Assembly: GCA_028716485.1 (NCBI GenBank)
Contig: JAQUPS010000003.1
Coordinates: 715-64,714 of the forward strand
Direction of reading: 5' to 3'
DNA from: Patescibacteria group bacterium
GTDB taxonomy: Bacteria; Patescibacteriota; Patescibacteriia; Patescibacteriales; WJLG01
DNA: 64,000 bases
Positions 756 to 53,432 of this stretch are shown piece by piece (the stretch's first letter is position 1; each line of letters starts with the position of its first letter). The position numbers and the translations under genes were made by a program. The notes under the pieces are model-generated. The model saw only the letters and a program-made list of their open reading frames with translations, was not told where the DNA came from and did no database searches.

Positions 756-763
756 CTGCGACC

Positions 764-815
764 GCCGACTTGTCCTCCGCAGCTTTAGTGGAGGGGGAAG
801 CCTTGGCGAAGGCGG
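764..815. repeat. GC-rich 52-nt repeat, intergenic copy (family A)
   Basis: GCCGACTTGTCCTCCGCAGCTTTAGTGGAGGGGGAAGCCTTGGCGAAGGCGG matches 3432..3483 (inside a CDS) at 45 of 52 positions by my alignment. Confidence 0.7.
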
Positions 816-2809: not shown

Positions 2810-3763
2810 TTATTTGGATTTTATGACGTTCTCCACCGCTCCCCAGGCGCTGTCGCCCGCGACCGGAATCAATAAGACGACCTTGTCGCCGGGAATGCCT
2901 TTGTAATAAGTGATGCTCGCGGTAATGACGCGGAATTTTTTATGCTCGGCCTTCACTTGATAATTGCCATTAGAATCTTTTTCCAATTTGCCGATGACGC
3001 GTTTTCGCTCAATCGGCTTGGTTTGCTTATAGACAAAGGTGCCGCGGTCAGTGATGGTTAATTTCAGCATATCACCTTCCACCAGTTTTGATTTGGAAGC
3101 ATAATTGGCAGGCACGCTATATTCCTTGCCGTCCGGGCCGATCATATTTTCGCCGTTGAACACGCCCTCGACGATATGACCATAATCATCTTCTTCTTCG
3201 GCATCAAACCCGTCGCTGATTTCGGCAATACTGATGCGCTCTTCGTCATTCTCGCTTAAAAAACTCCCGAACAAAGAAGACAGCTTGGCGGAACACTTCT
3301 GGATATTTTCCAAAAGCTGCTCGGCCATTATTATCTTGGCTTTGGAAATCAAAACACTGTCTTCGCCGATATTTTCCTCCTCGTCATCATCATCTAAATC
3401 TTCCTCTTCGATTAATTCTTCATCCTCGTCCGCCGACTTGTCCTCCGTAGCTTCAGCAAAGGGGGAAGCCTTAGCGTAGGCGGGCTCGTCCGCCGCCGAT
3501 TCTTCTTCATCTTCGATAACTGCGGAAACGGCAGTCGGCGCGCAAACATCAGCCTCATCATCCGCGTCTAAATCAAAATCCTCAGCTTCATCCTCGGCTG
3601 GCTTAATGTCAGCATCTTCCCTTAAATCATCCTCATTTTCATCAGCGGCATGAAACCCCAAAGCGGAAAGATTATCCTCGCCCGCCGAAGCTTTAGCGAA
3701 GGCGGGCTCGCCCGCGCTTCCCTCTTCAGGTTCAAAACCGGCGTTAAAATTCAAATTTGGCAT
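2810..3763 (-). CDS. Hypothetical protein: extremely acidic low-complexity N-terminal region plus conserved-looking C-terminal beta-rich domain
   Basis: The ATG at 3763 (MPNLNF...) is preferred over the track's TTG at 3787. The D/E-rich region contains repeat-derived AGEPAFAKASAGE and ADEPAYAKASPFAEATEDKSADE. The C-terminus reads IVEGVFNGENMIGPDGKEYSVPANYASKSKLVEGDMLKLTI... Function unknown. Confidence 0.6.
   Translation of the reverse strand: MPNLNFNAGFEPEEGSAGEPAFAKASAGEDNLSALGFHAADENEDDLREDADIKPAEDEAEDFDLDADDEADVCAPTAVSAVIEDEEESAADEPAYAKASPFAEATEDKSADEDEELIEEEDLDDDDEEENIGEDSVLISKAKIIMAEQLLENIQKCSAKLSSLFGSFLSENDEERISIAEISDGFDAEEEDDYGHIVEGVFNGENMIGPDGKEYSVPANYASKSKLVEGDMLKLTITDRGTFVYKQTKPIERKRVIGKLEKDSNGNYQVKAEHKKFRVITASITYYKGIPGDKVVLLIPVAGDSAWGAVENVIKSK
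3432..3483. repeat. GC-rich 52-nt repeat, in-frame genic copy (family A)
   Basis: GCCGACTTGTCCTCCGTAGCTTCAGCAAAGGGGGAAGCCTTAGCGTAGGCGG is a near copy of 764..815. On the minus strand it is translated as PAYAKASPFAEATEDKSA. Confidence 0.7.
3677..3712. repeat. Shorter family-A module inside the same CDS
   Basis: CTCGCCCGCCGAAGCTTTAGCGAAGGCGGGCTCGCC shares the CCGAAGCTTTAGCGAAGG core with 14364..14394. It is translated as GEPAFAKASAGE. Confidence 0.5.
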
Positions 3764-3780
3764 ATTTTTGTTTTTATTTT

Positions 3781-3869: not shown

Positions 3870-3886
3870 GCTTATAATTCCCGACC

Positions 3887-4074: not shown

Positions 4075-4083
4075 TAAATGACT

Positions 4084-4121
4084 AAAAAAAGAGCCGGGAA
4101 CGATTTGTTCGTTCTCGGCTC
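4084..4121 (-). terminator. Rho-independent terminator of the beta-propeller gene
   Basis: 13-bp stem GAGCCGAGAACGA/TCGTTCCCGGCTC (one mismatch) followed by TTTTTTT on the minus strand, 23 nt after the stop at 4144. Confidence 0.7.
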
Positions 4122-6290: not shown

Positions 6291-6319
6291 ATATTAGCAT
6301 AGCTTATTATTTTTGTCAA
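6291..6319 (-). promoter_or_regulatory. Sigma70-type promoter for the beta-propeller gene
   Basis: Minus strand: TTGACA (6319..6314), 17-nt spacer, TAATAT (6296..6291), about 70 nt upstream of the ATG at 6219. Confidence 0.55.
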
Positions 6320-6409
6320 TCTTTGCCAATAAAAAATCGCCAAAATTGGCTAATTTTTAATAAACTTAATTAGTAAATCCAATTACTTTTTTTAAATTGA
6401 TATTAGACC

Positions 6410-9244
6410 CTATTCCGCCGATATGCGATGAAAATATTCTTCGGTAAAACTCGGGTCAATATTATTTTTGTAAAAATTAATCACATAATCAACCTTGCTT
6501 TTCAAGATCGGATATTGGCTGACGGTATTCCAAAAATCTTTAAGCGCATTGGTCTTGTCAATCTTAAACATATTCTGGGCTATCGTAGAAAAATCTTCAT
6601 CTTCATTGGCTCGGCAATAATAAGTCAAAAATCCGGCCTTCCATAATTCAACGGAAGTGTAATCACTATCATTAGCAACAACTTCCGACCTAATGCTGTT
6701 ATCATAAGAAAGTCCGCCGGTATTTAAACGATCTAAATCCTCTTGATAAAAATTTACGGTGTAATGAAGGCTCTTGATAATATTGTGGGCGATTTCGTGA
6801 TGTATACCCTGTTCAAAACGATCTGAATCTGAATTATAAGCCACAAAAATTTTCACGTTCCAGGGATCGGCCATGCCGCCGACATTTACGCCCTTTTCGT
6901 ATACATTATTTAAGATATAAATTTTGTATATAAACTTTTTTAAGACTTCGAGCGGATATTTATCCAGAGCCTTCTTCACAATCGCCAAGCTCGCATCAAC
7001 CCTATCTTCAGACAAATTCGTTCCGCTAACATCCCGAGTCGGCTGATCGGCAACTCCGGCCGGATTCAAATGGGCACTATTATTGTTATCTTTCGACCAG
7101 GTAATCTCAACACCGCGATATTTTATACATTTATCGGGGATGGCGCACGTCGTACTTTCCGATACCGGCGCGACCGGCGTTACTGGCTTATTGACCGGAC
7201 TGCCGGAAGTAACCGGCGCTGATAATTTGTCGCCAACTCCAATTTTATTAATATTACTATCGGTTATTCCTAATCCAAGATTTTTCAGAACATTCAAGGC
7301 ATTTGCGGGATTGCCAAGAAAATATCTTCTATTATTGCTCGGGTTTACATACCAAGCCTCCCCTTTTGATTGAACTTGCAGTAAAATTTTTCCTCTTTGT
7401 TTGACGGCAAAGGCCGTATTTAATTTTAATTTTCCCGCGCCGTTGGGATTATAGCCGTTTTGCAATTCGGTTTTGTCGGAATACCCATCTTTATCGGAAT
7501 CTTGCGCGACATTCATTGCCCCCAAACTATCCACGGCTACCGGAATTTTATTGATGTCAGTATTGGTAATGCCAACTCCCCGGCTAATAATGACGTTCTT
7601 AATATTGGACAAGTTTAAAGAATATTTTTTATAAGTTTTCGGGTCGACATACCAAGCGGCTCCGCCGGATTGCACTTGCAATAAAATTTTTCCGCTCAAT
7701 CTTTTTGATAAATTTAAATCAATATTATTCGAAAGTGTATTCTGTTTGGGAGTAATAATAACTACTTTATCACCCTGGCTATTCTGGCTTGTACTAGACA
7801 GAGGGTTAACTGCCTCGGGGGTTGTATTAAACGATGGCTTGGCCGCCTCAGAAATTGATTGATTCGTTCGCGGATTAACGGTAATTGTTTTTGTACTGGG
7901 AGAAAGATCCGTTCCTCCGATATAGGCTTGGATTACGTATTTTTTGGCAGGATTAAATTGAAATGCGAAATCCCAAGTTTTGGTTTCATTTAGCTTGAGC
8001 GGACTTCCGGCGATAGATGAGCCGATGGGAATATTAAAATGCTTATCTTGTTTAGAAACAAGATTGCCGCTAGTACTGTTTTCATAAATCAAAATTCCGT
8101 ATGTATAATCATAAATATCATAAACACCGGTATTTTTAACTATCTCGCTCACGCCAGCCGACGAAGTTGTGATATCAGTAATAGCCATCGAGTTAGTGCC
8201 AGATACGTTGGCCGTAGTGAATTCGCCGATATCGGATTTAGTCTCCTGGGTAAAATTGTAAGTGGAATCTATATAATATTGGTAAGTTGTAGCCTGTTTC
8301 AAATTTGGAATTGTCGTTGAATGATCAACCGCAAAGCCAGGCTCACCCGCTTGAGCCCAATTCGTTGATCCCTTTTCCGCATACTTAACAATGCTGTCCG
8401 TATTCTTGCTTGTTTTCCAACTGATGATAGCGCTATTTGATCTGATTGTCTCTGCGGGGATAGTAATGCCACTTATTACATTAGGTAATGAGTCATCAAG
8501 AATCGTAAGCTTCTTCTCGAAAGTATTATCAGTCTCATTTGATTCGGCAATAACATTATCACTATCAATAGTGACAACTAAGTCATAAGTACCAGGGTCC
8601 AGGACAAAACTTATTCTTTGCCTGTAGGGTTGAGTCACATCAAAATACTTGGTAAGGCCGCTAATTTTATCATATACCTTTATCTTGTATGGCGAAGGAA
8701 AATAATTACAAATGTCCGAAAAAACTTGATCGCCGGAATAATTAATATCAACTTTATCTTGTTTTTCATTGTCATAATTTAGCGAAACATCATCAATTTT
8801 TAAATTAGTCAAGGGGCAATTCGATGACGGATACACGAAGTGAGCAAGCCCGGTAATATTGAAATTATTGCTTTCAGTCCCACTGCTGCCAGCACCATAT
8901 GCTTCAAGATAAATCGTATAGCTGCCAGTGACTAAATCCGATGGGGTTTTCCAGCTATACGAACCGGTGGGACTATTAATATCCTCCGTATTACTAGTGA
9001 TAAAGATGGAATTGCCGTGTTTATAGCTAAGTCTGACCCCGCTGACATTAGACTGATTCCATTTAATCGTCACTGTGTCGCCAGCGTTAAAGGTTTCCCC
9101 TCCGGCCGGAAATGTTATAGAAGCGCTGGGTATGGCGTTTATGTCAAAAGCTGAAACATTTACCGGACAAAAAATCGCCAATAAAAATATAAAACTGAAA
9201 AAAAGCATCAACCCACGCTTATTGACAAAATCCTGTTTTTGCAT
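6410..9244 (-). CDS. Large secreted multidomain surface protein with C-terminal HExxH (putative Zn-metallopeptidase-like) domain
   Basis: 944 aa with an N-terminal signal/TM. It has an Ig-like module (ITFPAGGETFNAGDTVTIKWN), CARDB-like NETDNTFEK and an FN3-like segment. It has two copies of the GKILLQVQS.G.AWYV...GLGITxxxINKI module (about 7240..7400 and 7540..7700). A Ca-binding-like DSDKDGYSDKTELQNGYNP segment and a C-terminal IHHEIAHNI motif follow. Confidence 0.75.
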   Translation of the reverse strand: MQKQDFVNKRGLMLFFSFIFLLAIFCPVNVSAFDINAIPSASITFPAGGETFNAGDTVTIKWNQSNVSGVRLSYKHGNSIFITSNTEDINSPTGSYSWKTPSDLVTGSYTIYLEAYGAGSSGTESNNFNITGLAHFVYPSSNCPLTNLKIDDVSLNYDNEKQDKVDINYSGDQVFSDICNYFPSPYKIKVYDKISGLTKYFDVTQPYRQRISFVLDPGTYDLVVTIDSDNVIAESNETDNTFEKKLTILDDSLPNVISGITIPAETIRSNSAIISWKTSKNTDSIVKYAEKGSTNWAQAGEPGFAVDHSTTIPNLKQATTYQYYIDSTYNFTQETKSDIGEFTTANVSGTNSMAITDITTSSAGVSEIVKNTGVYDIYDYTYGILIYENSTSGNLVSKQDKHFNIPIGSSIAGSPLKLNETKTWDFAFQFNPAKKYVIQAYIGGTDLSPSTKTITVNPRTNQSISEAAKPSFNTTPEAVNPLSSTSQNSQGDKVVIITPKQNTLSNNIDLNLSKRLSGKILLQVQSGGAAWYVDPKTYKKYSLNLSNIKNVIISRGVGITNTDINKIPVAVDSLGAMNVAQDSDKDGYSDKTELQNGYNPNGAGKLKLNTAFAVKQRGKILLQVQSKGEAWYVNPSNNRRYFLGNPANALNVLKNLGLGITDSNINKIGVGDKLSAPVTSGSPVNKPVTPVAPVSESTTCAIPDKCIKYRGVEITWSKDNNNSAHLNPAGVADQPTRDVSGTNLSEDRVDASLAIVKKALDKYPLEVLKKFIYKIYILNNVYEKGVNVGGMADPWNVKIFVAYNSDSDRFEQGIHHEIAHNIIKSLHYTVNFYQEDLDRLNTGGLSYDNSIRSEVVANDSDYTSVELWKAGFLTYYCRANEDEDFSTIAQNMFKIDKTNALKDFWNTVSQYPILKSKVDYVINFYKNNIDPSFTEEYFHRISAE

Positions 9245-9267: not shown

Positions 9268-11793
9268 TTAAAATAATGTCAGCCGCTTGTTGATTTCCGC
9301 TTCAATCAAGGCGCGGTCGCGGCCGTATTTCAGGCGACTCAGAGTTTTTATTTTATCGACAATCTCCGGACGTTCTAGGCCGGCCGGCGGCCAGATTGTT
9401 TTCATCGAGAATGGGCGCGAGGCGGTATTGTCGATTAATAATTTTACGTAGGCGGTGTAAGCTTCGATATTTATCAAATCATATTCGTTGAAAACCGGGG
9501 AATATTCTTTGGCCAGAACTTCAGCGTCTTCCGAGCCGATTTTGAAAGTGAACCAAGAGCCGACATTGCCGAACACGGCCGAGCGGATCGCCTCGCCTTC
9601 CTTGCCCAGCTGGCCGAGATATTGATGAGCGATGATCAGATTCAAACCGTATTTGCGGGCTTCGGATAAAATAGTGTTGATAGAGTCAGTGGTGAAATTC
9701 TGGAATTCGTCGATGTATAAATAAAAATCTTTGCGCGCGGTGTCCGGCATATCGGCGCGGGAAAGCGCAGCCATTAAAATTTTGCCGACAATTATCAAAC
9801 CGAGCAGATAAGCGTTCATATCGCCGATTTTTCCTTTGGACAAATCAACCAAAAGGATTTTCTGTTTGTCCATCACGTCGCGCAGATTGAACGAGCTTTT
9901 TTGCTGGCCGATGATCGGGCGCATCGTGTCGTTGGAAACGAATTGAGTCAGCTTGGAAGTGATATAAGGCACGATGTTGGCCAGCGCCGCTTCGCCGCCG
10001 GCTTTTTCCGCCTGCTTCTGCCAAAAATCCACCACCGTAATATCCGAACAATTTTTTAATTTTATCTGGCGGAAATCCGGATCGGACAAAACCCGCGGCA
10101 CCTCCATTAAGGTCGAACCGGATTCCGTGTGCGCCATAATCAAAAGCAAAGCGTTGCGCATATACTGCTCGAACATCGGGCCGCCGGTGGTTTTTAGATC
10201 ATATAATTTATCAAAAATCTTGATCAGTTCGTTGATGACGAAAGTTTTCTGCTCCGGATAACGCTCGTCGAATTCGATTAAGTTCAAACCCATCGGCCGC
10301 TCGATATCGGCCGGTGAAAACAAGATCACGTCTTCGGCGCGTTCCGGCGGAATCCTTTTCATGATATCCTCGATCAGATCACCGTGCGGATCCATCACAC
10401 AGACGCCTTCGCCGTTTAAAATATCCTGGATCGCCAAGCTGGCGATGAATTTTGACTTGCCCGTGCCGGACTTGCCGATGACATAGCAATGGCGGCGGCG
10501 GTCGGCGCGCTTAATGCGGATTTCTTTATCAACGCCGCGATAAACATTTTTCCCCAAAACAATTCCTTCGCTGGGAATATTAGATGGCGCCGGCGCCTGC
10601 CGCGCGGTGAGCCAGGCGATATTCGGCGTTTCCAGATTTTTCAGCGGAAAATGATAAATGCTGTCCAACTCTTCGGTGTTCAAGAGAAAACCAATTCCTT
10701 CGTCAAAACGGCGATAGATAAAATCGTGGATGACGCCGCTATTGAACTGATAATTTTTTTGCTGGAAAATATTACCGTATTCGTAATAATTATATTCGGC
10801 AAAGGCGTTGGCCATATTCAGAAGATAGGCTTTGCCGTTGTGTTCGTTTTTCGTACTGACCACGATGCGGATATTAACATCCAATCCGGCTTTGGAATTC
10901 TTGTCTTCCATATTTTTAAGCATCTCCTCCTCCATCGCTGATAATTTTTTCGGTTCTTTGGCTTCTTTTTCCCGCTCGCTTTTCGGCTTAGCCTCTTTGG
11001 CCACGCTGCCTAAAAATGCCATGGTTTTATTGAACGCCCCGTTGCCGACAGCTTCGCCGACTTTCTTGCCGCGATTTACTTCCCGAACCACGGAAGAAAT
11101 TTTCCGATGCCAGGAAGATTTCGCGCTGCGGACTAACACCTGCAAAGCCATTGATTCGTCTTTTTCCAATTTGCTCATCACGTTGACGAGCGAATTCATC
11201 GGATCGATTTCCATTTTATTGTAAGTGCGGATGGGAAAAACGAAACTTTTTTTCGTCTTGATTACGCTCGCGAAAACTTTAGCGCCCGGGTTGAAAATAT
11301 TATAGTCAGGAACCTCCTCAACCAGCGCGTCCGGAAAATTGGCATGGATCTGCTGTTCGATATAGCGCGCCATTTCCGCCGGCGTGACTACGTAAAAATA
11401 AATTTTCTTGTCAGTGGCGACGATTTCAAAAGAAAAATGATCGGCTCGGCCGAACAGCCAAGCCTTCAAGCCTCTTTGCGCCCGCGAGCCTCCGATACTG
11501 TTGAAAATCGCCTCGCCAACCGCGATCTGTTCGCGCAAATCCTGCACGGTCGGTTCTTTGTTTTCCTCGCCCGGCTTTTCCTTGGGCAGGCGAACCATAA
11601 AAACCGTCTGGGTAAGATATTGATTGCGCGCGAAATAGCCGCGCAAAATCCGCAGTGCGATCAAAACAATAATCAAAAAAACAACCGCGATCGCGGCATA
11701 AAAAACGATCAAAGACCAGTCGATCGCGGAATTTATCGACGACGCGGGAAAAATATTAGTATAATCGATGCCGTAATTCATATTTTTTGTCAT
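9268..11793 (-). CDS. VirD4/TraD/TraG-like (type IV coupling protein family) P-loop ATPase with N-terminal TM anchor
   Basis: Walker A VIGKSGTGKS, Walker B FYLYIDEFQNF, IIAHQYLGQL...VFGNVG block, one N-terminal TM. The first ATG (11793) lies inside the terminus of repeat E3, so the alternative start at 11781 (MNYGIDY) is at least as likely. Confidence 0.7.
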   Translation of the reverse strand: MTKNMNYGIDYTNIFPASSINSAIDWSLIVFYAAIAVVFLIIVLIALRILRGYFARNQYLTQTVFMVRLPKEKPGEENKEPTVQDLREQIAVGEAIFNSIGGSRAQRGLKAWLFGRADHFSFEIVATDKKIYFYVVTPAEMARYIEQQIHANFPDALVEEVPDYNIFNPGAKVFASVIKTKKSFVFPIRTYNKMEIDPMNSLVNVMSKLEKDESMALQVLVRSAKSSWHRKISSVVREVNRGKKVGEAVGNGAFNKTMAFLGSVAKEAKPKSEREKEAKEPKKLSAMEEEMLKNMEDKNSKAGLDVNIRIVVSTKNEHNGKAYLLNMANAFAEYNYYEYGNIFQQKNYQFNSGVIHDFIYRRFDEGIGFLLNTEELDSIYHFPLKNLETPNIAWLTARQAPAPSNIPSEGIVLGKNVYRGVDKEIRIKRADRRRHCYVIGKSGTGKSKFIASLAIQDILNGEGVCVMDPHGDLIEDIMKRIPPERAEDVILFSPADIERPMGLNLIEFDERYPEQKTFVINELIKIFDKLYDLKTTGGPMFEQYMRNALLLIMAHTESGSTLMEVPRVLSDPDFRQIKLKNCSDITVVDFWQKQAEKAGGEAALANIVPYITSKLTQFVSNDTMRPIIGQQKSSFNLRDVMDKQKILLVDLSKGKIGDMNAYLLGLIIVGKILMAALSRADMPDTARKDFYLYIDEFQNFTTDSINTILSEARKYGLNLIIAHQYLGQLGKEGEAIRSAVFGNVGSWFTFKIGSEDAEVLAKEYSPVFNEYDLINIEAYTAYVKLLIDNTASRPFSMKTIWPPAGLERPEIVDKIKTLSRLKYGRDRALIEAEINKRLTLF

Positions 11794-11972
11794 CCTGAGC
11801 CGTCCGCTCCGAGCGGATGGCGAAGGATCTATATTGGTAGCATAGCATTATCTTTTGAAAATATTTCCAAAACATTGTCGGTAAATTTTAAATATTCGTT
11901 CTAATCCGTGAGTAATGCATTAAAATGGTTTACAATCACAGATCCTTCGCCAGGGGCTCAGGATGACAAATA
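11785..11972. repeat. MITE-like double-hairpin element E3
   Basis: TTTTTTGTCATCCTGAGCCGTCCGCTCCGAGCGGATGGCGAAGGATCT ... AGATCCTTCGCCAGGGGCTCAGGATGACAAA. The core contains ATTCGTTCTAATCCGTGA, as in E1. The element fills the whole spacer between 11977 (stop) and the start of the next gene. Confidence 0.75.
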
Positions 11973-11976
11973 GTTA

Positions 11977-12447
11977 TTAATTTTTCTTTTTTAATTTAAT
12001 AATTTCGTCCGCTTTAATTTTGGCTTCCTGCTCCAAAAAAAATTTATTGACTCCGGGGAGCCGCGCCAGCCATTTTCTGATCAAATCGACGATCTTGCCG
12101 ATATTTATTTTGGTTTTCTCCAAGAGTTTGTTGATTTTTTTGGCAGTCTCTTCCCCTTCCCGGCGGAATTCCGCCTGCTTTTCAAGCGGCAAACCCAAAT
12201 AAATTTCTTCCAAATCGCGCGCCAAAAAATTCTCGATCTGCTTTTCCCGCTCTTCGTATTCCGAAATCACGCTTTTAATCGGCCGCGCCGGCGTGATGAC
12301 CGCGGCGCCCGGCCTCTCGATCGCTTTTTCCGCCGGCTTCTCTGTTTTTTCAACGCCAAATTCCGGCCGCTCATTCAGAGCGCCGGCCTCGGTTTCGATT
12401 TTCTTCGGCGCTTCAATATTCGCGCCAATCTTTAATTCGCCGGGCAT
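11977..12447 (-). CDS. Hypothetical coiled-coil/charged protein
   Basis: 156-aa ORF, K/E-rich, with no recognisable motif. It lies on the same strand immediately upstream of the VirD4-like gene. Confidence 0.5.
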   Translation of the reverse strand: MPGELKIGANIEAPKKIETEAGALNERPEFGVEKTEKPAEKAIERPGAAVITPARPIKSVISEYEEREKQIENFLARDLEEIYLGLPLEKQAEFRREGEETAKKINKLLEKTKINIGKIVDLIRKWLARLPGVNKFFLEQEAKIKADEIIKLKKKN

Positions 12448-13591: not shown

Positions 13592-13641
13592 ATCAATTAA
13601 AAATTACAAATTAAGAATTAAGAATCATTTTTAAAATAAAA

Positions 13642-14114: not shown

Positions 14115-15155
14115 TTATTTTAACAATTTCTTTATATCCGCCAAGGTTTCAACTTTAACCAATTCTTTCCGCATTTCCGCCGCGTCAGGCATTCCCTTTA
14201 CATACCAGCACAAATGTTTGCGCATTTCAAGTATCCCCCGCTTGCCCTTCAATTTTTCCATCAATTTGGCGTGCTCGTAAGCAATTTTAAAAACAATCCC
14301 CTCCTCGGGAGGGGTGGCTCGCGCCGCGCGAGACGGGGAGGGTATATTATTAATTCCTTTTTTACTTGTCCTCCGAAGCTTTAGCGAAGGAGGATTTTTT
14401 ATTTCCTCAAAGATTTGCGGGTGCCCGCAAGACCCTTGCGCGATGCCGACGCCGTCCGCGTTGGTTTTTTTAAGCATGATTTCCGCGTCTTCCGGAGTAT
14501 TTATTCCGCCATTGGCAATAATAACTCCGGAAAAAATTTTCTTCAGCCGATTAATCGCTCCGTAATCAATCTCGCCGGCAAAGCCTTGCGCCAAAGTCCG
14601 ACCGTGAACCATAATCGCCGCGATATCCAGTCCTTTCATCTTTTCCACAAAGTCAAAAATACTAATTCCCCTCTTGGGAGGGGTGGATCCGCCCCTGGCG
14701 GAGACGGGGTGGGTCGATATGCGCGCTTTAACCGAGACCGGCAACTTGGTATTTTTTAAAACCGCTTCCAAAACCCGCCGCGATTGCTCCAAATCCTTGA
14801 ACAAAGCTGTGCCGGCGCCCGACTTTACTATTTTAGCCACCGGACAGCCGAAATTAATATCAATCCCGTCCGGCTTGATTTTCTGCTCGACTATCTTTAC
14901 GGCTTTGGCGAAATGTTCCGGATTATTACCGAAAAGCTGGACGACAAATTTCGCCCCGCCATTTTTTTTGTAAGAGTCCAAAAGTCCGCTAGTCCGCTCG
15001 CTGTCAAAAAACAAACCGGCGGCCGAAACCATCTCGCTGTAAACAACATCCGCGCCGAACTTGCCGCACAAATACCGAAAAGCCGCGTCGGTTATTCCCG
15101 CCATCGGCGCTAAACAAAAAATAGGCTTTTTCAATTTTTGCCAAAAATTACCCAT
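14115..15155 (-). CDS. dus: tRNA-dihydrouridine synthase (Dus family) carrying two repeat-derived insertions
   Basis: LAPMAGITDAAFR, INFGCP, HGRT and the GNGGI-like IANGGI blocks of the Dus TIM barrel. The patches STHPVSARGGSTPPKRG and PPSLKLRRTSKKGINNIPSPSRAARATPPEEG coincide with DNA repeats. Confidence 0.85.
   Translation of the reverse strand: MGNFWQKLKKPIFCLAPMAGITDAAFRYLCGKFGADVVYSEMVSAAGLFFDSERTSGLLDSYKKNGGAKFVVQLFGNNPEHFAKAVKIVEQKIKPDGIDINFGCPVAKIVKSGAGTALFKDLEQSRRVLEAVLKNTKLPVSVKARISTHPVSARGGSTPPKRGISIFDFVEKMKGLDIAAIMVHGRTLAQGFAGEIDYGAINRLKKIFSGVIIANGGINTPEDAEIMLKKTNADGVGIAQGSCGHPQIFEEIKNPPSLKLRRTSKKGINNIPSPSRAARATPPEEGIVFKIAYEHAKLMEKLKGKRGILEMRKHLCWYVKGMPDAAEMRKELVKVETLADIKKLLK
14297..14394. 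repeat. GC-rich hairpin repeats (family B module plus family A module) in-frame inside dus
   Basis: TCCCCTCCTCGGGAGGGGTGGCTCGCGCCGCGCGAGACGGGGAGGGT, then ACTTGTCCTCCGAAGCTTTAGCGAAGGAGGA. Both modules recur elsewhere in the window. Confidence 0.7.
14666..14717. repeat. GC-rich hairpin repeat (family B) in-frame inside dus
   Basis: TTCCCCTCTTGGGAGGGGTGGATCCGCCCCTGGCGGAGACGGGGTGGGTCGA, with hairpins CCCCTC-TTGG-GAGGGG and CCGCC-CCT-GGCGG. Near-identical modules occur at 33374..33462. Confidence 0.7.
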
Positions 15156-15161
15156 ACTTCA

Positions 15162-15312
15162 TTTGTCATCCCGAGCAGAGGCCGCCGCGGCCGCAGTCGA
15201 GGGATCCCTTTTATCTACGATAACGCCATTATGCAAAATAAAAGCGATTCCTCCCTGCCTACCGGCAGGCAGGCGCTTCGCGCGAGGCGCGCTTCGGTCG
15301 GAATGACAAGTT
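15162..15312. repeat. Variant MITE-like hairpin element E4
   Basis: The left end is TTTGTCATCCCGAGC...GTCGAGGGATC and the right end is ...GCTTCGGTCGGAATGACAAG. It begins 7 nt upstream of the dus start codon. Confidence 0.6.
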
Positions 15313-15451
15313 TGTGTGACAAGTTTGTGTTGACTTATATCATAGATAAATATAACATTATTGTAAATGATGGGGCGGCTGATCGAACCTTAACAAAAAA
15401 CCAACCAAACGCCGGCAGTGCGCCGGAATTCTTCAGTGCGAAGGAGAAAAT

Positions 15452-16838: not shown

Positions 16839-16952
16839 AAAATTATTGCTAAATTAATTAATTATGATTTGATATTAGCATAATTTCGGTAAAATTAAAA
16901 GAGCCGGCAATCTTGCCAACAAAAAATCTCCCACATTAGCGATTTATATATT

Positions 16953-17142
16953 CTTGTCATCCTGAGCCCCTGGCGAAGGATCTATTAGCTGAGAGATAAA
17001 TTTAAAATATTATAAAATATCAGAAAGATTGTTTGGTGAAAAAGCTATCAATAAAAAATTTGGTCACTTAAATCCCGATTTCCTGCAAAATAGATCCTTC
17101 GTCGTTCGCCGAGGCGGCTCGCTCCTCAGGATGACAAAAAAA
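16953..17142. repeat. MITE-like double-hairpin element E5
   Basis: The left end CTTGTCATCCTGAGCCCCTGGCGAAGGATCT equals the reverse complement of the right end of E3. The right end AGATCCTTCGTCGTTCGCCGAGGCGGCTCGCTCCTCAGGATGACAAAAA nearly equals the E2 hairpin. Confidence 0.75.
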
Positions 17143-17168
17143 GACGGCAATTCTTATATTTTCACTTC

Positions 17169-18581
17169 TTACTTCTTGCTTACTTTCATCCCCTCTTTCG
17201 TATCTTCGACAGAAAAACCTTTGGCTTCGATTTCGGCGCGCAAGCGGTCGGACTCGGGCCAATTTTTTTCCGCGCGGGCTTTTTTTCTTTGCTCAATCAA
17301 GGAAATAACTTCGACAGGGATTTCTTCTTTATTATTTAAAGTTCTTTCAAAATCCAAACCAAGCACTCGGTCAAAATCTAATAATGTTGCAAGTTTATCT
17401 TCCGACGATATATTTAATTTTATTACTTCCTGCAAAACCGATAAGGCACCGGGAGTATTAAAATCATCGTTGACGAATGTGGAAAATTTATCTTTATATT
17501 CGACGTTCACCGCGCCCTTTTTATCACCCAGCTCTTTTATCTTGTGATAGATACCGCTTAAACCGTTCTGCGCGGCTTGCAGGGCTTCCCAAGTGAAATT
17601 TTGCGGCGAACGGTAATTGGCCGACAGAAAATAATAGCGCAAAGCGAGCGGATTAAATTTTTTCTCTTTGAGTTCGGCCAATGTCAGGCTGGTGCCGGAA
17701 GACTTGGCCATTTTTTCTTCGTTAGCCAAAAGATGTTCGTTGTGCAGCCAATAATTCACATATTTCACACCGTTGGCCGCTTCCGATTGGGCAATCTCGT
17801 TGGTGTGATGAACCGGAATATGCTCGATACCACCCATGTGAACATCAAGAGTATTACCTAAATATTTTTTGCTCATCGCCGAACATTCGATATGCCAGCC
17901 GGGAAAACCTTCGCCTGATTTTACCAGCAAAGATTTAAATGGCGATTTCCAAAATTGTAAAGCATTAACATGAATGCCGGCGCGGAAAAACCAGAGCGCG
18001 AAATCGCGGGCATTTTTTTTGGCCGGGTCGCTGACATCGCCGCTCCCCTCCCCGATGATATTTTTTTCCAGATTCTGCCGGGAAAGTTCGGTGTAATTGG
18101 AAAATTTAGAAACGTCAAAATAAATCGCCAGCGGCGTAGCGTAGGCAAAACCTTTTTGCAAAAGCTTTTCTACCATTGTTTGCATTTCTTTGATATGCCG
18201 GGTGGCGCGCGGTTTTTTCCACGGCTCTTTGATGTTCAAATCGGCCGCGTCTTGCTCGTAAATATTGATATATTTTTGAGCGATTTCTTCCGGGGACAAG
18301 CCTTCGCGCTTAGCGCCTTTTTCCATCTTATCTTCGCCAGCGTCTTCATCGGAAGTCAAATGTCCGACATCGGTATAATTTTTTACATATTTGACTTTAT
18401 AGCCGTCATACTCGAAAACGCGGCGGATGATATCGCCCAGCACGGCCGCGCGCAGATTGCCCAGATGCTGAACCCAATAAACCGTCGGCCCGCATTGGTA
18501 AAAAGAAACAATGCCCTTCTTTAAAGGCTTAAATTCTTCTTTTTTTCGCGTCAGAGTATTGTATAAAAATATCTTGTTCAT
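17169..18581 (-). CDS. cysS: Cysteinyl-tRNA synthetase
   Basis: 470 aa with a class I fold. CGPTVYWVQHLGNLR (HIGH-region variant), KMAKSSG (KMSKS), WHIECSAM. Confidence 0.95.
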   Translation of the reverse strand: MNKIFLYNTLTRKKEEFKPLKKGIVSFYQCGPTVYWVQHLGNLRAAVLGDIIRRVFEYDGYKVKYVKNYTDVGHLTSDEDAGEDKMEKGAKREGLSPEEIAQKYINIYEQDAADLNIKEPWKKPRATRHIKEMQTMVEKLLQKGFAYATPLAIYFDVSKFSNYTELSRQNLEKNIIGEGSGDVSDPAKKNARDFALWFFRAGIHVNALQFWKSPFKSLLVKSGEGFPGWHIECSAMSKKYLGNTLDVHMGGIEHIPVHHTNEIAQSEAANGVKYVNYWLHNEHLLANEEKMAKSSGTSLTLAELKEKKFNPLALRYYFLSANYRSPQNFTWEALQAAQNGLSGIYHKIKELGDKKGAVNVEYKDKFSTFVNDDFNTPGALSVLQEVIKLNISSEDKLATLLDFDRVLGLDFERTLNNKEEIPVEVISLIEQRKKARAEKNWPESDRLRAEIEAKGFSVEDTKEGMKVSKK

Positions 18582-24221: not shown

Positions 24222-24755
24222 CTAGATTCGTTTCAGCCATTTGAGAATCGCCCAGGCGATCGCGCCACCGGCTAAAGCCGTGGCGAATTGCGGCCAGGAA
24301 ACGATTTGAATTACGGCCGAGGCCAAATCTTTTTTCAGAATCAGGCTGATCATCAGATTGGCGTTGAACCAGATAAACAAATATTTCAGCGCCGCTCCGA
24401 CGGCCACGCCGATCCAATAGCCGTTGAGCTGTTTTTGGGCGGCGCGATAAAAATAATCGATGCTTAAAATAAAAATAACATTGCCGATCATGATAAACGG
24501 CACGACCGGCGCCAAAACCGCGGGCAAAAGTCCGCCAGCCAAAGCCATTACGCTCGGCACCAAGCTCATCAGTAAAGCGGCGCGGATGCCGGCAATGAAT
24601 AAAATCAAAATCAGCAGCGCGTTAATGATCGGGCCGGTGATCCATTGGATATGGATGAGAAACGGCAAAAAAGTGGCGACTGCCGCCAACGATAAAAATT
24701 GGGCGATAGCGGCAACATCAACTTTCACCGCGGCTTGTTCTTGAATATAATTCAT
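24222..24755 (-). CDS. Integral membrane protein (about 6 TM), last gene of the hydrogenase-associated string; function unknown
   Basis: Hydrophobic throughout. ATG at 24755 (MNYIQEQ) is preferred to the TTG at 24767. Any resemblance to ECF S-components is only my impression. Confidence 0.6.
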   Translation of the reverse strand: MNYIQEQAAVKVDVAAIAQFLSLAAVATFLPFLIHIQWITGPIINALLILILFIAGIRAALLMSLVPSVMALAGGLLPAVLAPVVPFIMIGNVIFILSIDYFYRAAQKQLNGYWIGVAVGAALKYLFIWFNANLMISLILKKDLASAVIQIVSWPQFATALAGGAIAWAILKWLKRI

Positions 24756-24765
24756 AATAAACAAC

Positions 24766-24838
24766 AAATCTCAATTTTAAATTATAAAATAAATTATAAA
24801 TAAAAAATTTGAATTTGATATTTTAAAATTTAAAATTA
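24766..24838. repeat. AT-rich 'AAATCTCAATTTTAAA' word inverted repeat (family C), copy 1
   Basis: AAATCTCAATTTTAAATTATAAAATAAATT...TTTGATATTTTAAAATTTAAAATTAAT. The same words occur at 26997.., 28085.. and 40358... Confidence 0.55.
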
Positions 24839-25203: not shown

Positions 25204-26985
25204 TTAATAATTTCTCTTGTGATACTTGGTAAACAAAACTTTCTTTTCTAATTTGTTTTTTTTGATCCAATCGATCACTTCCAAGACGCCCTTATTTTCA
25301 TAAGAGCGGCGAAAGCCTTTTTTGGCAAAATCTATCTGATACAATGTTTGCTGCCGCTGGGCGCGGATCTCGTCGGTGGTCGGGATGGGCTGGCCGCCGC
25401 CGCCGATACAGCCGCCGCGGCAAGCCATCACTTCAATATAATCGAATTTATTCAGATCGGCGATAATCGGATCGATATTGCCAATGCCGTTGACTACCGC
25501 GATCCTCACTTTACTGCCGGCAATGTCCACTACGGCCGTTTTTATGCCGGCCAATCCCCTCGCCTCGTTATAATCTATCTTAGCGCGGCACAATTTTGCC
25601 TTTGGCCCGCAAGCCAAAAAATCCGCAGTGCGCAAGGCCGATTCCATCACGCCGCCCGAGCCGCCGAATAAAGCGGCCGCGCCGGAAAACCTGCCCAGCG
25701 GATCGTCGGTTTCCCGCGGTTTTAATCTGGCCAAATCAATATTATTTTTCTTCAACAAAAAAGATAATTCTCTGGTAGTTAAAACTTGATCAATCACCTG
25801 CCGCCCGTCGACTTTCATTTCCGGCCGGACTGCTTCATATTTTTTGGCCGTACAGGGCATAATCGAAACCAGTTTGATATTTTTCGGGTCGATCTTCATT
25901 TTCTTGGCCCAAAAAGTTTTTACCGCGCCGGCCAGATGGATATGCGGCGAGCGGGTCGTGGCCAGATGCGGAATAAGCTCCGGATGCAGCAGCTCGACGT
26001 AATTCACCCAGCCAGGACAGCAGGAAGTGAACATCGGTCGAGTAGCCTTCTTATCTTTAATCCGTTCTAATAATTCCTCGGCTTCGATTATCGTCGTTAA
26101 ATCAGCGCCAAAATTTATATCAAAAACATAATCAAAGCCCAATTGGCGCAAAGCGGCGGTGATTTTTCCCGAAGTGTCTTTGCCATACGGCATCTTAAAA
26201 TCCTCGCCGATCGTCACCCTGACCGACGGCGCAAACTGTGCCACCAAAATTTCCTTATCTTTATAAGCGGCGGCTTCGCCTCGCCGAAGCCCCTGGCGAA
26301 GGCGGGGGTGGGTTGCGCGGTTTACTTTTTTTCTTGCCAACAACTTTTCCACCGCCGCGATTTCAGATTGCTCCTGCGCCGCCGACACCGGACAATGCAG
26401 GGCGCACTGGCCGCACAAAATGCATTTGAATCCTTCATTCTGCCGCGGCACAATTTCCTGCCGGCTCCCCTTGCCGGCGAATTTCAAATAATGGATATTC
26501 TGCTGCATGGCGCAGGCCTCGACGCAATTCTTGCAGTCAATGCACTGCGAACCGTCAATCTCCACGGCATTGCGGAATTTATAGATCTTGCGCGCGCCTT
26601 TGCGGTCGCGGAATCTTGTTAATTTTACGCCATATTTTTTCACCGCGCCAAGCAAAGGACATTGGAAGCGCCAGATGCAATTCGGACATTTTTCAATATG
26701 CTCGGCAAAAATCAATTCTAAATTCATATTGCGCGCCTTTTTCACCCGTTCGGTTTCAGTCCGCACTTCCATGCAATCACAGACGGTCGTCGCGCACGAC
26801 GGCACTAATCTTTTATAGCCCTTAACTTCCACGGAACAGACGCGGCAATTTCCTTTCACCGGAAAATCCGGATGGAAACACAAAGCCGGAATATCAATCC
26901 CGTTCTTCTTGGCAACTTCCAAGACGGTCTGGCCCGGATCGGTCAGATAATCTTTACCGTTGATCTTTATCTTCAGCTTCTTCAT
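25204..26985 (-). CDS. hydA: [FeFe]-hydrogenase catalytic subunit (M3-type HydA) with a repeat-derived linker insertion
   Basis: N-terminal 2Fe-2S ferredoxin-like domain, H..C..C.....C cluster, two CxxCxxCxxxCP ferredoxin motifs. H-cluster motifs FTSCCPGW, MPCTAKKYE and EVMACRGGCIGGGGQP. Confidence 0.92.
   Translation of the reverse strand: MKKLKIKINGKDYLTDPGQTVLEVAKKNGIDIPALCFHPDFPVKGNCRVCSVEVKGYKRLVPSCATTVCDCMEVRTETERVKKARNMNLELIFAEHIEKCPNCIWRFQCPLLGAVKKYGVKLTRFRDRKGARKIYKFRNAVEIDGSQCIDCKNCVEACAMQQNIHYLKFAGKGSRQEIVPRQNEGFKCILCGQCALHCPVSAAQEQSEIAAVEKLLARKKVNRATHPRLRQGLRRGEAAAYKDKEILVAQFAPSVRVTIGEDFKMPYGKDTSGKITAALRQLGFDYVFDINFGADLTTIIEAEELLERIKDKKATRPMFTSCCPGWVNYVELLHPELIPHLATTRSPHIHLAGAVKTFWAKKMKIDPKNIKLVSIMPCTAKKYEAVRPEMKVDGRQVIDQVLTTRELSFLLKKNNIDLARLKPRETDDPLGRFSGAAALFGGSGGVMESALRTADFLACGPKAKLCRAKIDYNEARGLAGIKTAVVDIAGSKVRIAVVNGIGNIDPIIADLNKFDYIEVMACRGGCIGGGGQPIPTTDEIRAQRQQTLYQIDFAKKGFRRSYENKGVLEVIDWIKKNKLEKKVLFTKYHKRNY
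26267..26320. repeat. GC-rich repeat chimera (A/B-type modules) in-frame inside hydA
   Basis: GCGGCGGCTTCGCCTCGCCGAAGCCCCTGGCGAAGGCGGGGGTGGGTTGCGCGG shares GAAGCCCCTGGCGAAGG with the E3/E5 hairpins and GGGGTGGGTT with family B. It is translated as NRATHPRLRQGLRRGEAAA. Confidence 0.55.
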
Positions 26986-26996
26986 AAAATACTTTT

Positions 26997-32004: not shown

Positions 32005-33948
32005 TCAAATCGAATGGATTTCCATCTGGCAATTGCCGCAATCAAAATTTAAGAGATATTTCTTGCCTTGATTGACTAAAAATAACGGCTCGGCAAAATT
32101 AGCTTTCCGCGCCGGCTTCCCTTTCGGGCAGGCGTTCAGCCAATATTTCAGACAATGTTTGCAGGTCATTAATTTTTTGCCGCGGTAATCTTTTTGCAAT
32201 TCAAAAGCCGGTTCGACGACCTTGGCGCCGTGCCGGGCGTAAAATGATTTGGCCAATTTATTGGCGACATTGAATGAATAGTCCAAATTTTTATGAAAAT
32301 ACGGCTGAGCGGGATTTTGATGCTCGATTTTAATCCGCGGATAATTTTTCAATCTTTTTTTAAGCAGCGCGGCGGCCGATTTGCGGCGCCATTCGTTTAA
32401 AACCGAAAGCGGAATGAAATACGGCTTATCCCAATCAAAAATTATTTCACGCGCGGAAAATATCGTTTCGCCCAGTTTGCTCAATTGTTCCTGCCAATTT
32501 TTTATAGCGAGTTCCGGCTTTTCGGCCGGCTTCTTTTCCGTTTTGAATTCCAAGGCAGCGGAATTATTATCTTCATCAATCGCTTCAATCTTAAAACCGT
32601 TCTTGGTTTCCTTAATGATATAATCAAGCGCGATGCGGCGACTGACTCCCCTTTCCACCGCTTTTTCAAAAGCCGGATTTTCATTGCGGTAGATTTCCGT
32701 GCCGACCGTGAGCGGCAGAACTTTATTCGGATAAATTTTTCCGTCTTTCACCATATTTATATTCGTGCCGACCAGTTCGCCTTCGCGGTCAAACCAGCAG
32801 ATGCCGTCGCCGTTCTGCAAATCGTGCTTTTTTTCCAAGCTGAAATGCGAACAAGCGGCGCTCTCGACTTTGCCGATTAATTCTCCCAAGGATTTTTGCG
32901 TGCGCGGCGAGATAATTTCACCCTTGCGGCCGCGCAGAAAATATTCGCTATAACCGCGGTTAAAAGTTTTATTCTGGTCGGGCGCAAAATTTATTTCGGT
33001 TTTTCCCGAGGAAGCGCGGGCATATTTTCCGCCGCTCGCTTCGATAATTTTATCAAGCTCCTGGCGATATTCGGCTGTGACATTGGCGACATAAGCGCAA
33101 TCTTTCAGCCGGCCTTCGATTTTAAAAGAAGTGACTCCCGCCTCAACCAATTCGTTCAGCGCGCCGGATAAATTCAAATCTTTCAGGGATAATAAATATT
33201 TATCTTTGGCTAAAATTTTCCCTTCGCTGTCGATCAAATCAAACTGCTGGCGGCAGACCTGCGCGCATTTTCCCCGATTGGCGCTGCTGCCGCATTGAGC
33301 TTGGGAAAAATAACAGCGGCCGGAGGCGGAAACGCAGAGCGCTCCGTGGACAAAAACTTCCAAATCCATTTTATTCCCCTCTTGGGAGGGGTGGCCGCTT
33401 CCCCTCTTGGGAGGGGTGCCGAGCCCGGCGAGGCGGGGTGGGTTGGCGAGACGGGGTGGGTTTTCGCGCGAAATTGGCCGAGCTGTTTGTTCACAAATAT
33501 TTTTTATCTCCTTGATATTTAGCTCGCGAGCCAAAATGACCCGGGATAATCCGGCGGCGGCCAAAAATTTCACCTGCTCGACGCTGGAATTATCGCATTG
33601 CGTCGAGGCGAACAAAGGAATGGGCGGCAAATCCATTTCCAAAATTCCCATATCCTGGATTATCAAAGCGTCGGCGCCGATTTCATAAGCCCGGTCGATA
33701 AACTTTTTCACTTCGTCGATTTCATTATCAAAAAATATCGTATTCAAGGCGACATAAATCCGCCCATAATATTGATGCGCGAACTCAATCAGCAATTCGA
33801 TATCTTCCCAGGAATTGCCGGCCGCCGAGCGCGCGCCAAAATCCGGCCCGCCGATATAAACCGCGTCCGCGCCCGCCAGAATCGCCAGCTTGCCGGTTGC
33901 CAAATTTTTAGCCGGAGCCAAAAGCTCAAGCTTGATAGTTTTTTCCAT
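32005..33948 (-). CDS. Peptidase U32 family protein (collagenase-like / RlhA-TrhP-type) carrying a repeat-derived insertion
   Basis: LELLAPA..., IYVALN and EVFVHGALCVSASGRCYFS are U32 signature blocks, with a C-terminal Cys-rich tail. The segment RENPPRLANPPRLAGLGTPPKRGSGHPSQEGN coincides with the family-B repeats. Confidence 0.85.
   Translation of the reverse strand: MEKTIKLELLAPAKNLATGKLAILAGADAVYIGGPDFGARSAAGNSWEDIELLIEFAHQYYGRIYVALNTIFFDNEIDEVKKFIDRAYEIGADALIIQDMGILEMDLPPIPLFASTQCDNSSVEQVKFLAAAGLSRVILARELNIKEIKNICEQTARPISRENPPRLANPPRLAGLGTPPKRGSGHPSQEGNKMDLEVFVHGALCVSASGRCYFSQAQCGSSANRGKCAQVCRQQFDLIDSEGKILAKDKYLLSLKDLNLSGALNELVEAGVTSFKIEGRLKDCAYVANVTAEYRQELDKIIEASGGKYARASSGKTEINFAPDQNKTFNRGYSEYFLRGRKGEIISPRTQKSLGELIGKVESAACSHFSLEKKHDLQNGDGICWFDREGELVGTNINMVKDGKIYPNKVLPLTVGTEIYRNENPAFEKAVERGVSRRIALDYIIKETKNGFKIEAIDEDNNSAALEFKTEKKPAEKPELAIKNWQEQLSKLGETIFSAREIIFDWDKPYFIPLSVLNEWRRKSAAALLKKRLKNYPRIKIEHQNPAQPYFHKNLDYSFNVANKLAKSFYARHGAKVVEPAFELQKDYRGKKLMTCKHCLKYWLNACPKGKPARKANFAEPLFLVNQGKKYLLNFDCGNCQMEIHSI
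33374..33462. repeat. Tandemly duplicated family-B GC-rich hairpin modules in-frame inside the U32 gene
   Basis: 2x TTCCCCTCTTGGGAGGGGTG followed by 2x GCGAG(G/A)CGGGGTGGGTT. Confidence 0.75.
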
Positions 33949-51626: not shown

Positions 51627-51629
51627 ATT

Positions 51630-53375: not shown

Positions 53376-53416
53376 AGACCCTCCCCGTCTCACAGAGCTC
53401 GACACCCATCCCAAGG
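53376..53416. repeat. Family-B GC-rich module, intergenic copy in reverse orientation
   Basis: The reverse complement CCTTGGGATGGGTGTCGAGCTCTGTGAGACGGGGAGGGTCT parallels CTTGGGAGGGGTGG...GAGACGGGG(T/A)GGGT in dus and the U32 gene. Confidence 0.55.
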
Positions 53417-53432
53417 AGTGGATTTTTTAAAA

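Follow-up and report, generated by a model that had tools for sequence, protein, structure and literature searches.

Short GC-rich DNA repeats carried in-frame by the tRNA-dihydrouridine synthase gene and other genes of a Patescibacteria genome

Introduction

Why does an otherwise ordinary gene for tRNA-dihydrouridine synthase (Dus) contain GC-rich patches whose DNA recurs elsewhere in the same genome? The question arises from a 64,000-nucleotide stretch of a Patescibacteria group bacterium (assembly GCA_028716485.1, contig JAQUPS010000003.1, positions 715 to 64,714), which we call the window. An earlier note, made from its letters alone, had pointed to two such patches in the Dus open reading frame (ORF) and had likened them to Rickettsia palindromic elements (RPEs), selfish repeats that are tolerated inside genes. 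We find that the patches are built from two repeat units, modules A and B, that their presence varies among orthologues, and that module A recurs in many other phyla. At least three genes of this ultra-small bacterium carry such units in their loops, two of the three encoding housekeeping enzymes. We think it likely that both modules are short, non-autonomous DNA repeats of the class formed by repetitive extragenic palindromes (REPs) and intrastrand-triplex repeats, and that they have been copied into many sites, protein-coding genes among them.

Results

Three repeat units at two sites of Dus

The ORF at 14115-15155 (minus strand) encodes a Dus of 346 residues (Pfam PF01207, E=2e-62) that is 100% identical to MDD5527566.1, a protein from an NCBI metagenome-assembled genome (MAG) labelled 'Patescibacteria group bacterium'. 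We aligned it with 40 orthologues of 50-75% identity, and compared it at codon level with the syntenic loci of close relatives (given L numbers below). The invariant and catalytic residues C104, K143, R145, H184 and R186 are all retained. Three GC-rich repeat units lie in-frame at two sites, module A at site 1 and modules A and B at site 2:

14662..14717, plus strand (G-rich strand on plus): module A, Dus site 1; covariance model (CM) R1, 52.4 bits, E=4e-14
14292..14346, plus strand: module A, Dus site 2; CM R1, 34.6 bits, E=1.7e-8; read as NIPSPSRAARATPPEEGI
14360..14393, plus strand: module B, Dus site 2; repeat family D6; read as PPSLKLRRTSK

On the minus strand the first patch (14666-14717) is STHPVSARGGSTPPKRG and the second (14297-14394) is PPSLKLRRTSKKGINNIPSPSRAARATPPEEG; re-translation matched the coordinates and readings of the earlier note exactly. 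The site-1 unit reads as (S)THPVSARGGSTPPKRG(I), at about residues 147-164. Both of the hairpins claimed for the modules are present, CCCCTC-TTGG-GAGGGG as described and CCGCC-CCT-GGCGG as TCCGCC-CCT-GGCGGA, with DNA folding z-scores of about -2.1 to -2.6 on either strand.

Presence and absence among orthologues

Distant Dus orthologues carry no residues homologous to the patch at site 1, and in most aligned orthologues, close ones included, the position is a short R-x-x-A-G-K loop ('AGK'). Other inserts lie at or beside this site in P0002, P0004, P0006, P0008, P0025 and P0013. In the window and the syntenic loci of its close relatives, site 1 is occupied as follows:

L001 and L172: empty (CATGCCGGNAAR)
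Window: module A
L174: a variant of module A
L173: an unrelated palindrome, GGAACGCAAnATnTTGCGTTCC, in two copies
L175: the same unrelated palindrome, GGAACGCAAnATnTTGCGTTCC, in one copy

Site 2 is the linker joining the TIM barrel to the C-terminal helical domain, and is variable in nearly all orthologues. Module A is found there in the window and, as other subtypes, in L001, L173, L194 and L195; in L172 it is interrupted by further nested GC-rich inserts, and L175 has only an AT-rich 'IKNYKLKIKN' unit. Module B is absent at that position in L001 and doubled in L194. Nothing corresponds to the patches in the solved Dus structures 1VHN and E. coli DusB.

An AlphaFold2 model of the window Dus, made with the 40-sequence alignment, had a mean pLDDT of 88.4 and a TM-score of 0.85 to 1VHN (normalised to 1VHN). 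Site 1 is a coil between strand 140-147 and helix 166-172, with pLDDT averaging 58 over the block 151-160. Site 2 (residues 258-282) is also a coil, with pLDDT <50, between helices 248-253 and 284-318. The structural check that the earlier note proposed therefore came out as expected, with both patches in low-pLDDT coil between well-predicted elements of a Dus-fold model.

Two further genes show the same variation. The U32 gene of the window is an RlhA-like 23S rRNA hydroxylase homologue, by the source-given names of its relatives. It gave no sequence match to solved structures, so its insert was placed by orthologue alignment. Among 22 aligned orthologues the position is empty in 13 and filled by a single module-A-like unit in eight; the window has two units. 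A loop of CysS contains module A in L001 and L172, where the G-rich strand is the sense strand, and the palindrome GGAACGCAAnATnTTGCGTTCC in L173, and is empty in the window and in L174. Of the 14 module A copies counted in the window and its close relatives, 10 lie in genes.

The comparison with RPEs holds because the site-1 patch is absent from most orthologues, because unrelated repeats fill the same loops and because both sites are coil. It is further supported by the same sequence variant being found in different genes of related genomes.

Several other insertions were seen in these genes. The palindrome GGAACGCAAnATnTTGCGTTCC, which is absent from the window and fills the loops that elsewhere carry module A, reads as RNAKSCVPT or RNAISCVP and is in-frame in Dus and CysS (L173 10001-11083 and 5099-6619; L175 10001-10993). 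The IKNYKLKIKN unit occurs at Dus site 2 in many orthologues besides L175, and AT-rich repeats therefore appear to be read in-frame too. The L172 Dus (10001-10060) has a 24-nt in-frame insert, CCCTTCGGCTCCGCTCAGGGCAGG, after codon 10; it reads PFGSAQGR, a peptide also present in P0012, and resembles the core of the TGTCATCCTGAG...GAAGGATC family. CysS of L001, L172 and L174 contains an insertion of about 60 residues with a zinc-ribbon-like CxxC...CxxC pattern, which is missing from the window (17169-18581) and from L173; this is a different kind of indel from the repeats.

Further copies in the window

The recurrences claimed for the modules were confirmed: in the U32 gene (33374-33462), in reverse orientation in a spacer, and, for module B, at 764-815, 3432-3483 and, where the earlier note had 3677-3712, at 3672-3712. 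Beyond those in Dus, the copies are:

33370..33465, plus strand: nested pair of module A units in the U32/RlhA-like gene 32005-33948 (minus strand); CM; read as NPPRLANPPRLAGLGTPPKRGSGHPSQEGN
53377..53427, minus strand: degenerate intergenic module A; CM, 15.1 bits, E=0.026
759..815, plus strand: module B doublet in the spacer adjoining tRNA-Gln (684-755, minus strand); repeat search
3427..3483, plus strand: module B doublet in ORF 2810-3787 (minus strand), in a frame that differs from that of the Dus copy; read as AYAKASPFAEATEDKSAD
3672..3712, plus strand: module B unit in ORF 2810-3787 (minus strand); read as GEPAFAKASAGED
26266..26321, plus strand: probable composite GC-rich in-frame patch in ORF 25204-26985 (minus strand); GC-island scan and translation, assigned by eye only

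In the U32 gene, the inner module A copy occupies the middle hairpin of the outer one; the CM matched the pair at 33395-33444 (34.2 bits, E=2.2e-8) and 33376-33391 (17 bits), with the tail at 33448-33461. The intergenic copy lies between convergent greA-like and P-type ATPase ORFs (both named by eye) and folds no better than shuffled sequences (z=+0.2 to +0.7). The patch at 26266-26321, read as ...RATHPRLRQGLRRGEAA..., appears to combine a module-B-like unit with a ACCCACCCC tail.

These recurrences exceed chance. The module A core, CCCCTCNNNNGAGGGGTG, matched the window three times against 0.01 expected from shuffles, and the module B core three times against 0.00. CM R1 was built from 21 copies in 14 other-phylum loci, including one unrelated Patescibacteria MAG, with none from the window or its relatives. 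With this model the window copies scored 52, 35, 34, 17 and 15 bits, and no other part of the window matched.

In the window, four of the five copies of module A and every copy of module B point the same way, although the copies are few and their orientation is inseparable from that of the genes. The minus strand carries 43 of the 56 called ORFs. In 28 of 32 2-kb bins the GC skew is below zero, and its cumulative curve accordingly falls almost steadily.

Reading frames

Every genic copy had been said to be in-frame and free of stop codons. This is correct as a fact, but the absence of stops carries little weight, because the composition of module A leaves four to six of the six frames open: no frame is closed in the Dus site-2 copy or the intergenic-type consensus copies, and four or five are open in the remaining module A stretches examined. 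The informative facts are the net length, a multiple of three, and the presence or absence of the inserts among orthologues.

The first hairpin of module A reads TPPKRG, TPPEEG or HPSQEG in minus-strand genes and SPLSRGV in the CysS of the relatives, and module B reads SLKLRRTS in Dus as against FAKASAGE or FAEATEDK in ORF 2810-3787. The inserts are not a protein motif: they are read in several frames and in both orientations, as unrelated peptides.

This bears on the idea that the inserts are adaptive features of the proteins, basic flexible loops that serve the RNA-modifying enzymes of a bacterium with a reduced genome, for example by aiding RNA binding. The verified host genes, Dus, RlhA-like and CysS, do all act on RNA, the peptides contain much Arg, Lys and Pro, several lineages keep the Dus site-2 insert, and published intragenic REPs, as Di Nocera et al. 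noted, include tRNA synthetase and tRNA pseudouridine synthase genes (PMC3733652). However, besides one DNA giving unrelated peptides, unrelated repeats swap at the same loop, many close orthologues do without an insert, the same DNA lies in spacers, and the model predicts disorder. We consider an adaptive role of this kind improbable.

We also considered that the patches might not reach the mature product, through removal from the RNA or ribosome skipping (like the GC-rich 'byp' elements in the mitochondria of some yeasts), or might be artefacts of MAG assembly. Strong structure and high GC set the elements apart in a genome of 41-49% GC, and that genome is a MAG. Nevertheless, removal or bypass would not need every genic copy to be in-frame without stops, and no intron or ribozyme family matched. 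As for artefacts, homologous copies are found in-frame in independent assemblies (JGI, ENA, NCBI and Logan), and L001 and L002, from two sources, hold the same Dus protein with the site-2 module. We give these explanations very little credence, and expect the patches to be translated.

A hairpin, a second hairpin and a mirror tail

Module A is about 45-55 bp long. On its G-rich strand it consists of (A)ATT, a pyrimidine arm CCCCTC(Y), a loop of 2-4 nt and a purine arm (R)GAGGGG, followed by TG, a variable GC hairpin (mostly with a GNA triloop), GAC, and a G/T(A) tail that mirrors the purine arm. The unit can be written CCCCTC...GGGGTGGGT, and that of module B CTTGTCCTCCG.AGCTTTAGCGAAGGAGG. Each of the four genic window copies has the first hairpin, CCCCTC(Y)-N2-4-(R)GAGGGG, which folds as DNA. 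On the C-rich strand, the sequence is CCC-CGTC-hairpin-(N)CCA-CCCC for the outer U32 copy and for those at Dus site 1 and Dus site 2, and CGCC...GCA for the inner U32 copy.

Read backwards, the purine arm gives the tail, with A changed to T, or with A kept in two window copies; the arm and tail of the window copies read GGGAGGGG...GGGGTGGG or GGGGAGGG. There are three subtypes, distinguished by the end of the first loop and the tail (GG/TGGT, GA/TGTGT and GGG/TGGGT). The last loop base and the third tail base are paired as A/T in 48 distinct copies and as G/G in 97, and the rule holds in 145 of 148. Pyrimidine arm, purine arm and tail thus covary three ways.

The middle hairpins of module A have GC-rich stems of 3-9 bp and loops that are mostly of three nucleotides. 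GAA (43), GGA (15), GCA (12) and GTA (7) together make GNA the triloop in 77 of the 148 copies. The second loop (TG, hairpin and GAC) is 13-35 nt in all and the arm stems are 6-8 nt. As DNA, d(GCGNAGC) forms an exceptionally stable mini-hairpin (PMC13037366, PMC3201870).

Because our search pattern had fixed the core, we also examined non-canonical pyrimidine arms, taking perfect hairpins with other all-pyrimidine arms in 1.45 Mb and seeking a tail within 60 nt 3' of the purine arm. Of 84 strand views, 35 had such a mirror tail, and six had the same pattern 5' of the hairpin. Examples are GAAGGGGG...GGGGGTTG, AAGAGGG...GGGTGTT and AAGGAGAGGG-TTA-GGGTGAGGT.

The layout of module A matches the design of an antiparallel purine-motif triplex, which the family can probably form, and covariation of this kind between tail and purine arm marks the known intrastrand-triplex repeats (BoxC/PIT/TMECO). 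We rejected a G-quadruplex as a general explanation, since the TGTGT subtype has only two tracts for one; tetrads are further disfavoured because the A-to-T/A rule fits triples. Purine-motif triplexes are stated to be unable to form in RNA (PMC4666352), and the GNA triloops and purine-motif tail of module A point to DNA.

Module A in other phyla

We scanned one genome per GTDB species with the exact pattern CCCCTC-N4-GAGGGGTG-N8-30-GACGGGG. At least 120 loci matched, where our own arithmetic (22 bases, 23 spacings, 596 Gb, two strands) gives a chance expectation of about 1.6. Among the matches listed, the MAG labels include Bacteroidetes, Planctomycetota, Clostridiales, Pelosinus, Cyanobacteria, Ignavibacteria, Verrucomicrobiota, Deinococcales, Propionibacteriaceae, Cloacimonadota, Zixiibacteriota, Patescibacteria and others. 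Some 30 flanking bases are nearly invariant over more than 10 phyla, and AATT usually stands before the element; the middle hairpin varies in sequence and length and keeps its pairing. In IMG/VR, 18 predicted viral contigs (L176-L193) carry the exact pattern, some in 3-5 copies. By sequence, then, module A is not specific to the Patescibacteria lineage, and the same element of about 50 nt is found in many phyla.

Its distribution is patchy rather than phylum-wide. In 476 kb around the Dus genes of more distant relatives in the candidate phyla radiation (CPR), module A is nearly absent, with one fragment (L168). We rejected a CPR-wide element, given that in 482 kb (these 476 kb plus L001 and L002) it occurs only in L001, L002 and as that fragment.

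In other phyla, module A lies mostly outside ORFs. The possibility that it is mainly genic everywhere was rejected: ORFs of at least 150 codons span 47 of 154 other-phylum copies, compared to 445 of 600 random positions, and most of those 47 copies are, by eye, upstream of the real start codon. The other-phylum copies have no preferred orientation, whether judged against GC skew (37:40) or against the strand of neighbouring genes (35:36), and on this ground we rejected a function at the level of RNA or of the replication strand. Membership of a known RNA family was rejected too. Neither the window nor 16 loci carrying canonical copies gave any Rfam family a score as high as its gathering score, and at relaxed thresholds only Whalefall-1 matched weakly.

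In some genomes module A is arrayed in tandem, one unit about every 80 nt, or clustered in alternating orientation at intervals of about 100 nt, like BIME/REP clusters, in L021, L031, L073, L116, L120 (Propionibacteriaceae MAG from termite gut) and in L007, L033, L041 and L100. Copies also lie in-frame in what by eye resemble a type IX secretion system C-terminal sorting domain (L090, about 7619-7668) and the N-terminal region of FlhF (L055, about 6304-6349). Genic module A is therefore not limited to CPR.

Signs of copying

Comparison of individual copies suggested movement between sites. The nesting of one complete U32 copy within another is such a sign. The L194 Dus site-2 copy shares its middle hairpin (CCGAGCCCGGCGAG) and a GCGGGG variant with the inner U32 copy of the window, and the middle hairpin of the window site-1 copy (CGCCCCTGGCGGA) recurs in the L195 Dus site-2 copy. 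Orthologous Dus site-2 copies differ in subtype, each obeying the mirror rule, and two compensated pairs separate the middle hairpin of the window from that of L173. These signs fit repeated insertion or conversion by circulating members of the family; they would also fit selection on structure.

Selection on structure would be expected if module A had a function of its own as DNA, maintained even within genes, such as a signal for recombination, repair or replication or a site of local variability (as proposed for the triplex motifs of E. coli). Coding insertions would then be a side-effect of where the element is useful or tolerated. The near-invariant flanks and the three-way covariation speak for this, as do the mirror rule in each Dus site-2 subtype, the compensated hairpin pairs, and the good folding of genic copies beside a decayed spacer copy; triplex motifs have, moreover, been tied to genomic instability by Holder et al. 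(PMC4666352). The apparent covariation is, however, equally well explained if one family member takes the place of another, and a DNA function sits poorly with the patchy distribution, including the near-absence from distant CPR relatives, with presence and absence that differ among close orthologues, and with the lack of any orientation or position preference. For PIT elements, earlier work is reported to have found no promoter, terminator or polymerase-blocking role in vivo (PMC4666352). On balance we find a DNA function of this kind unlikely.

Some observations also weigh against the copied, non-autonomous repeat that we favour. We found no transposase or other mobilising gene in a search that was not exhaustive and covered about 64 kb of this genome and the loci of its relatives: ten small window ORFs had no relevant Pfam or Y1 transposase match, and the precomputed Pfam lists of neighbouring loci hold no Y1 transposase, the kind of enzyme whose gene the repeats flank in REPIN/RAYT systems. 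Filled and empty junctions compared by eye showed no consistent target-site duplication; a possible TAAAAAA repeat flanks the Dus module B copy and was not seen at other copies. The unbiased orientation lends no support to a mechanism linked to single-stranded DNA (ssDNA) of one replication strand. Genic copies keep their hairpins and three-way covariation and the single intergenic copy has decayed, which is not obviously how neutral passengers behave. Finally, repeated occupation of the same loops could reflect targeting rather than mere tolerance.

Other spacer repeats

[quoted passage not shown] One pair begins right at the Dus start codon. There are also two AT-rich spacer families, AAATCTCAATTTTAAATTTTAAAAT-like and AATATCCAATATCAAATAACC-like.

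2570-2765, 3875-4085, 11780-11990, 16930-17150 and 15156-15345: TTTTGTCATCCTGAG-[GC hairpin]-CGAAGGATCT pairs
29262-29302: single unit of the same family
13592-13625, 24745-24837, 26984-27053, 28077-28176, 40345-40445, 43490-43561, 50431-50534 and 51528-51629: AT-rich spacer repeats

Discussion

How copies might arise and persist

If modules A and B are copied repeats, as we favour, the following course is likely. The G-rich strand of module A, as ssDNA, can form two hairpins, and its tail could then fold back onto the first through reverse-Hoogsteen G*G:C and T(A)*A:T triples. This fold-back is modelled on the related BoxC/TMECO of E. coli, where it has been shown in vitro. New copies might arise by transposition in trans, or by conversion or recombination between copies, possibly on the folded strand. 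Genic copies would persist only if they add a net multiple of three nucleotides, are read in an open frame (which composition all but guarantees) and lie at a permissive site, a surface loop or inter-domain linker. They would then be translated as disordered peptides rich in Pro, Gly, Ser, Thr and Arg, presumably neutral and with no function of their own.

A bolder version, which we hold to be possible but doubtful, is that module A is a horizontally spreading element structured as ssDNA (hairpin, hairpin, triplex), its covariation actively maintained even in coding sequence, and that a shared machinery recognises the folded or triplex DNA and copies it into hairpin-prone sites. If so, the near-identical core in more than 10 phyla and in some predicted viral contigs would reflect widely shared machinery, with permissive loops of housekeeping enzymes in tiny CPR genomes among its targets. 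On this view, intrastrand-triplex repeats, far from being static 'instability motifs', would make up a class of mobile DNA and would repeatedly give rise to new protein loops.

Significance

In-frame colonisation of essential genes by palindromic repeats was reportedly first made famous in Rickettsia; the same process is now seen in streamlined Patescibacteria genomes. About 0.87 of the window is coding by a crude ORF map, and most element copies therefore sit in genes. What is new here is the composite element family, the host lineage and the unusually high genic share, in-frame REPs and triplex repeats being already known. The earlier note knew of no description of such repeats in this kind of genome. 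Our literature search, although incomplete in coverage, agrees: it returned no paper joining Patescibacteria or CPR with REP, MITE, palindromic or intrastrand-triplex repeats.

Module A joins in one composite element the REP/RPE-type intragenic repeats and the intrastrand-triplex (BoxC/PIT) repeats. As it is nearly identical across phyla, it is a good system for studying how repeats move. The repeats lengthen and diversify CPR proteins, and their translated motifs recur; annotation pipelines and protein-family alignments should treat HPSQEGN, TPPKRG and SLKLRRTS as repeat-derived.

Comparison with known systems

Module A resembles an RPE in being palindromic and in lying both in spacers and, in-frame at permissive positions, in housekeeping genes, where it would be translated through; it is also absent from many orthologues, as is typical of RPEs. 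It differs in its host, Patescibacteria rather than Alphaproteobacteria, and shows no evident sequence relation, a statement with no direct comparison of RPE sequences behind it. Elements of the RPE-1 type are 100-150 bp long. GC clusters in fungal mitochondrial genes are another class of small repeats. The MITEs of Coxiella are small non-autonomous repeats that can add residues to proteins (PMC5896051); modules A and B have no terminal inverted repeats, and module A falls far short of the usual length of a MITE.

Palindromic repeats read in-frame within genes are an established finding in Rickettsia and, as short REPs, in several phyla (PMC3733652). Like our modules, the intragenic GTAG and CGTC REPs lie within ORFs; they are of 20-40 bp, occur in several phyla, add 20-30 residues as dimers or groups, and are sometimes found twice in a gene (PMC3733652). 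They belong to a different element family, however, and here several unrelated families share the same loops. Most REPs in that survey were intergenic, in contrast to the genic majority of module A copies in this clade. RPE-4 and RPE-6 have been assigned to the CGTC superfamily, for which no dedicated transposase is known (PMC3733652). Module A has the terminal tags of that superfamily, a CGTC head (in the REPs unpaired, and also TGTC or CCTC) and a CCA tail on the C-rich strand. CGTC REPs, however, have stems of 8-9 bp starting with two A/T pairs and loops of 4-5 nt, which the stems and loops of module A do not fit, and the module A hairpin is embedded between a second conserved hairpin and the mirror tail.

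The Whalefall-1 RNA (RF01762), known only from metagenomes and proposed as an RNA, likewise has two adjacent hairpins followed by a tail rich in purines. Of the Rfam families it matches module A best, but we do not count module A as a member because the score, 16.5 bits, is below the gathering score of 37.

In layout module A resembles BoxC, rediscovered as PIT and studied as TMECO, an intrastrand triplex shown in vitro (PMC4666352, which cites the intrastrand triplex work of Hoyne and Maher from 2000). It has the same order of pyrimidine stem, loop, purine stem, second loop and mirroring purine stem (class II purine motif). TMECO has 9-nt stems (CCCTCNCCC) and a 3-nt second loop and is reported in Proteobacteria; in E. 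coli it is multi-copy, conserved and always intergenic, with no strand bias or link to mobile elements (PMC4666352). By the class II purine pattern of ITxF, module A has the arms and the mirror block but neither the short second loop nor the TMECO consensus CCCTCNCCC: its stems are 6-8 nt, its second loop is a hairpin of 13-35 nt, outside the 1-6 nt of ITxF, and it occurs in many phyla and in-frame in genes. The closest published analogues of these repeats are the short intragenic REPs, including RPE-4 and RPE-6, and the BoxC/PIT triplex repeats (PMC3733652, PMC4666352), rather than the 100-150-bp RPE-1 type.

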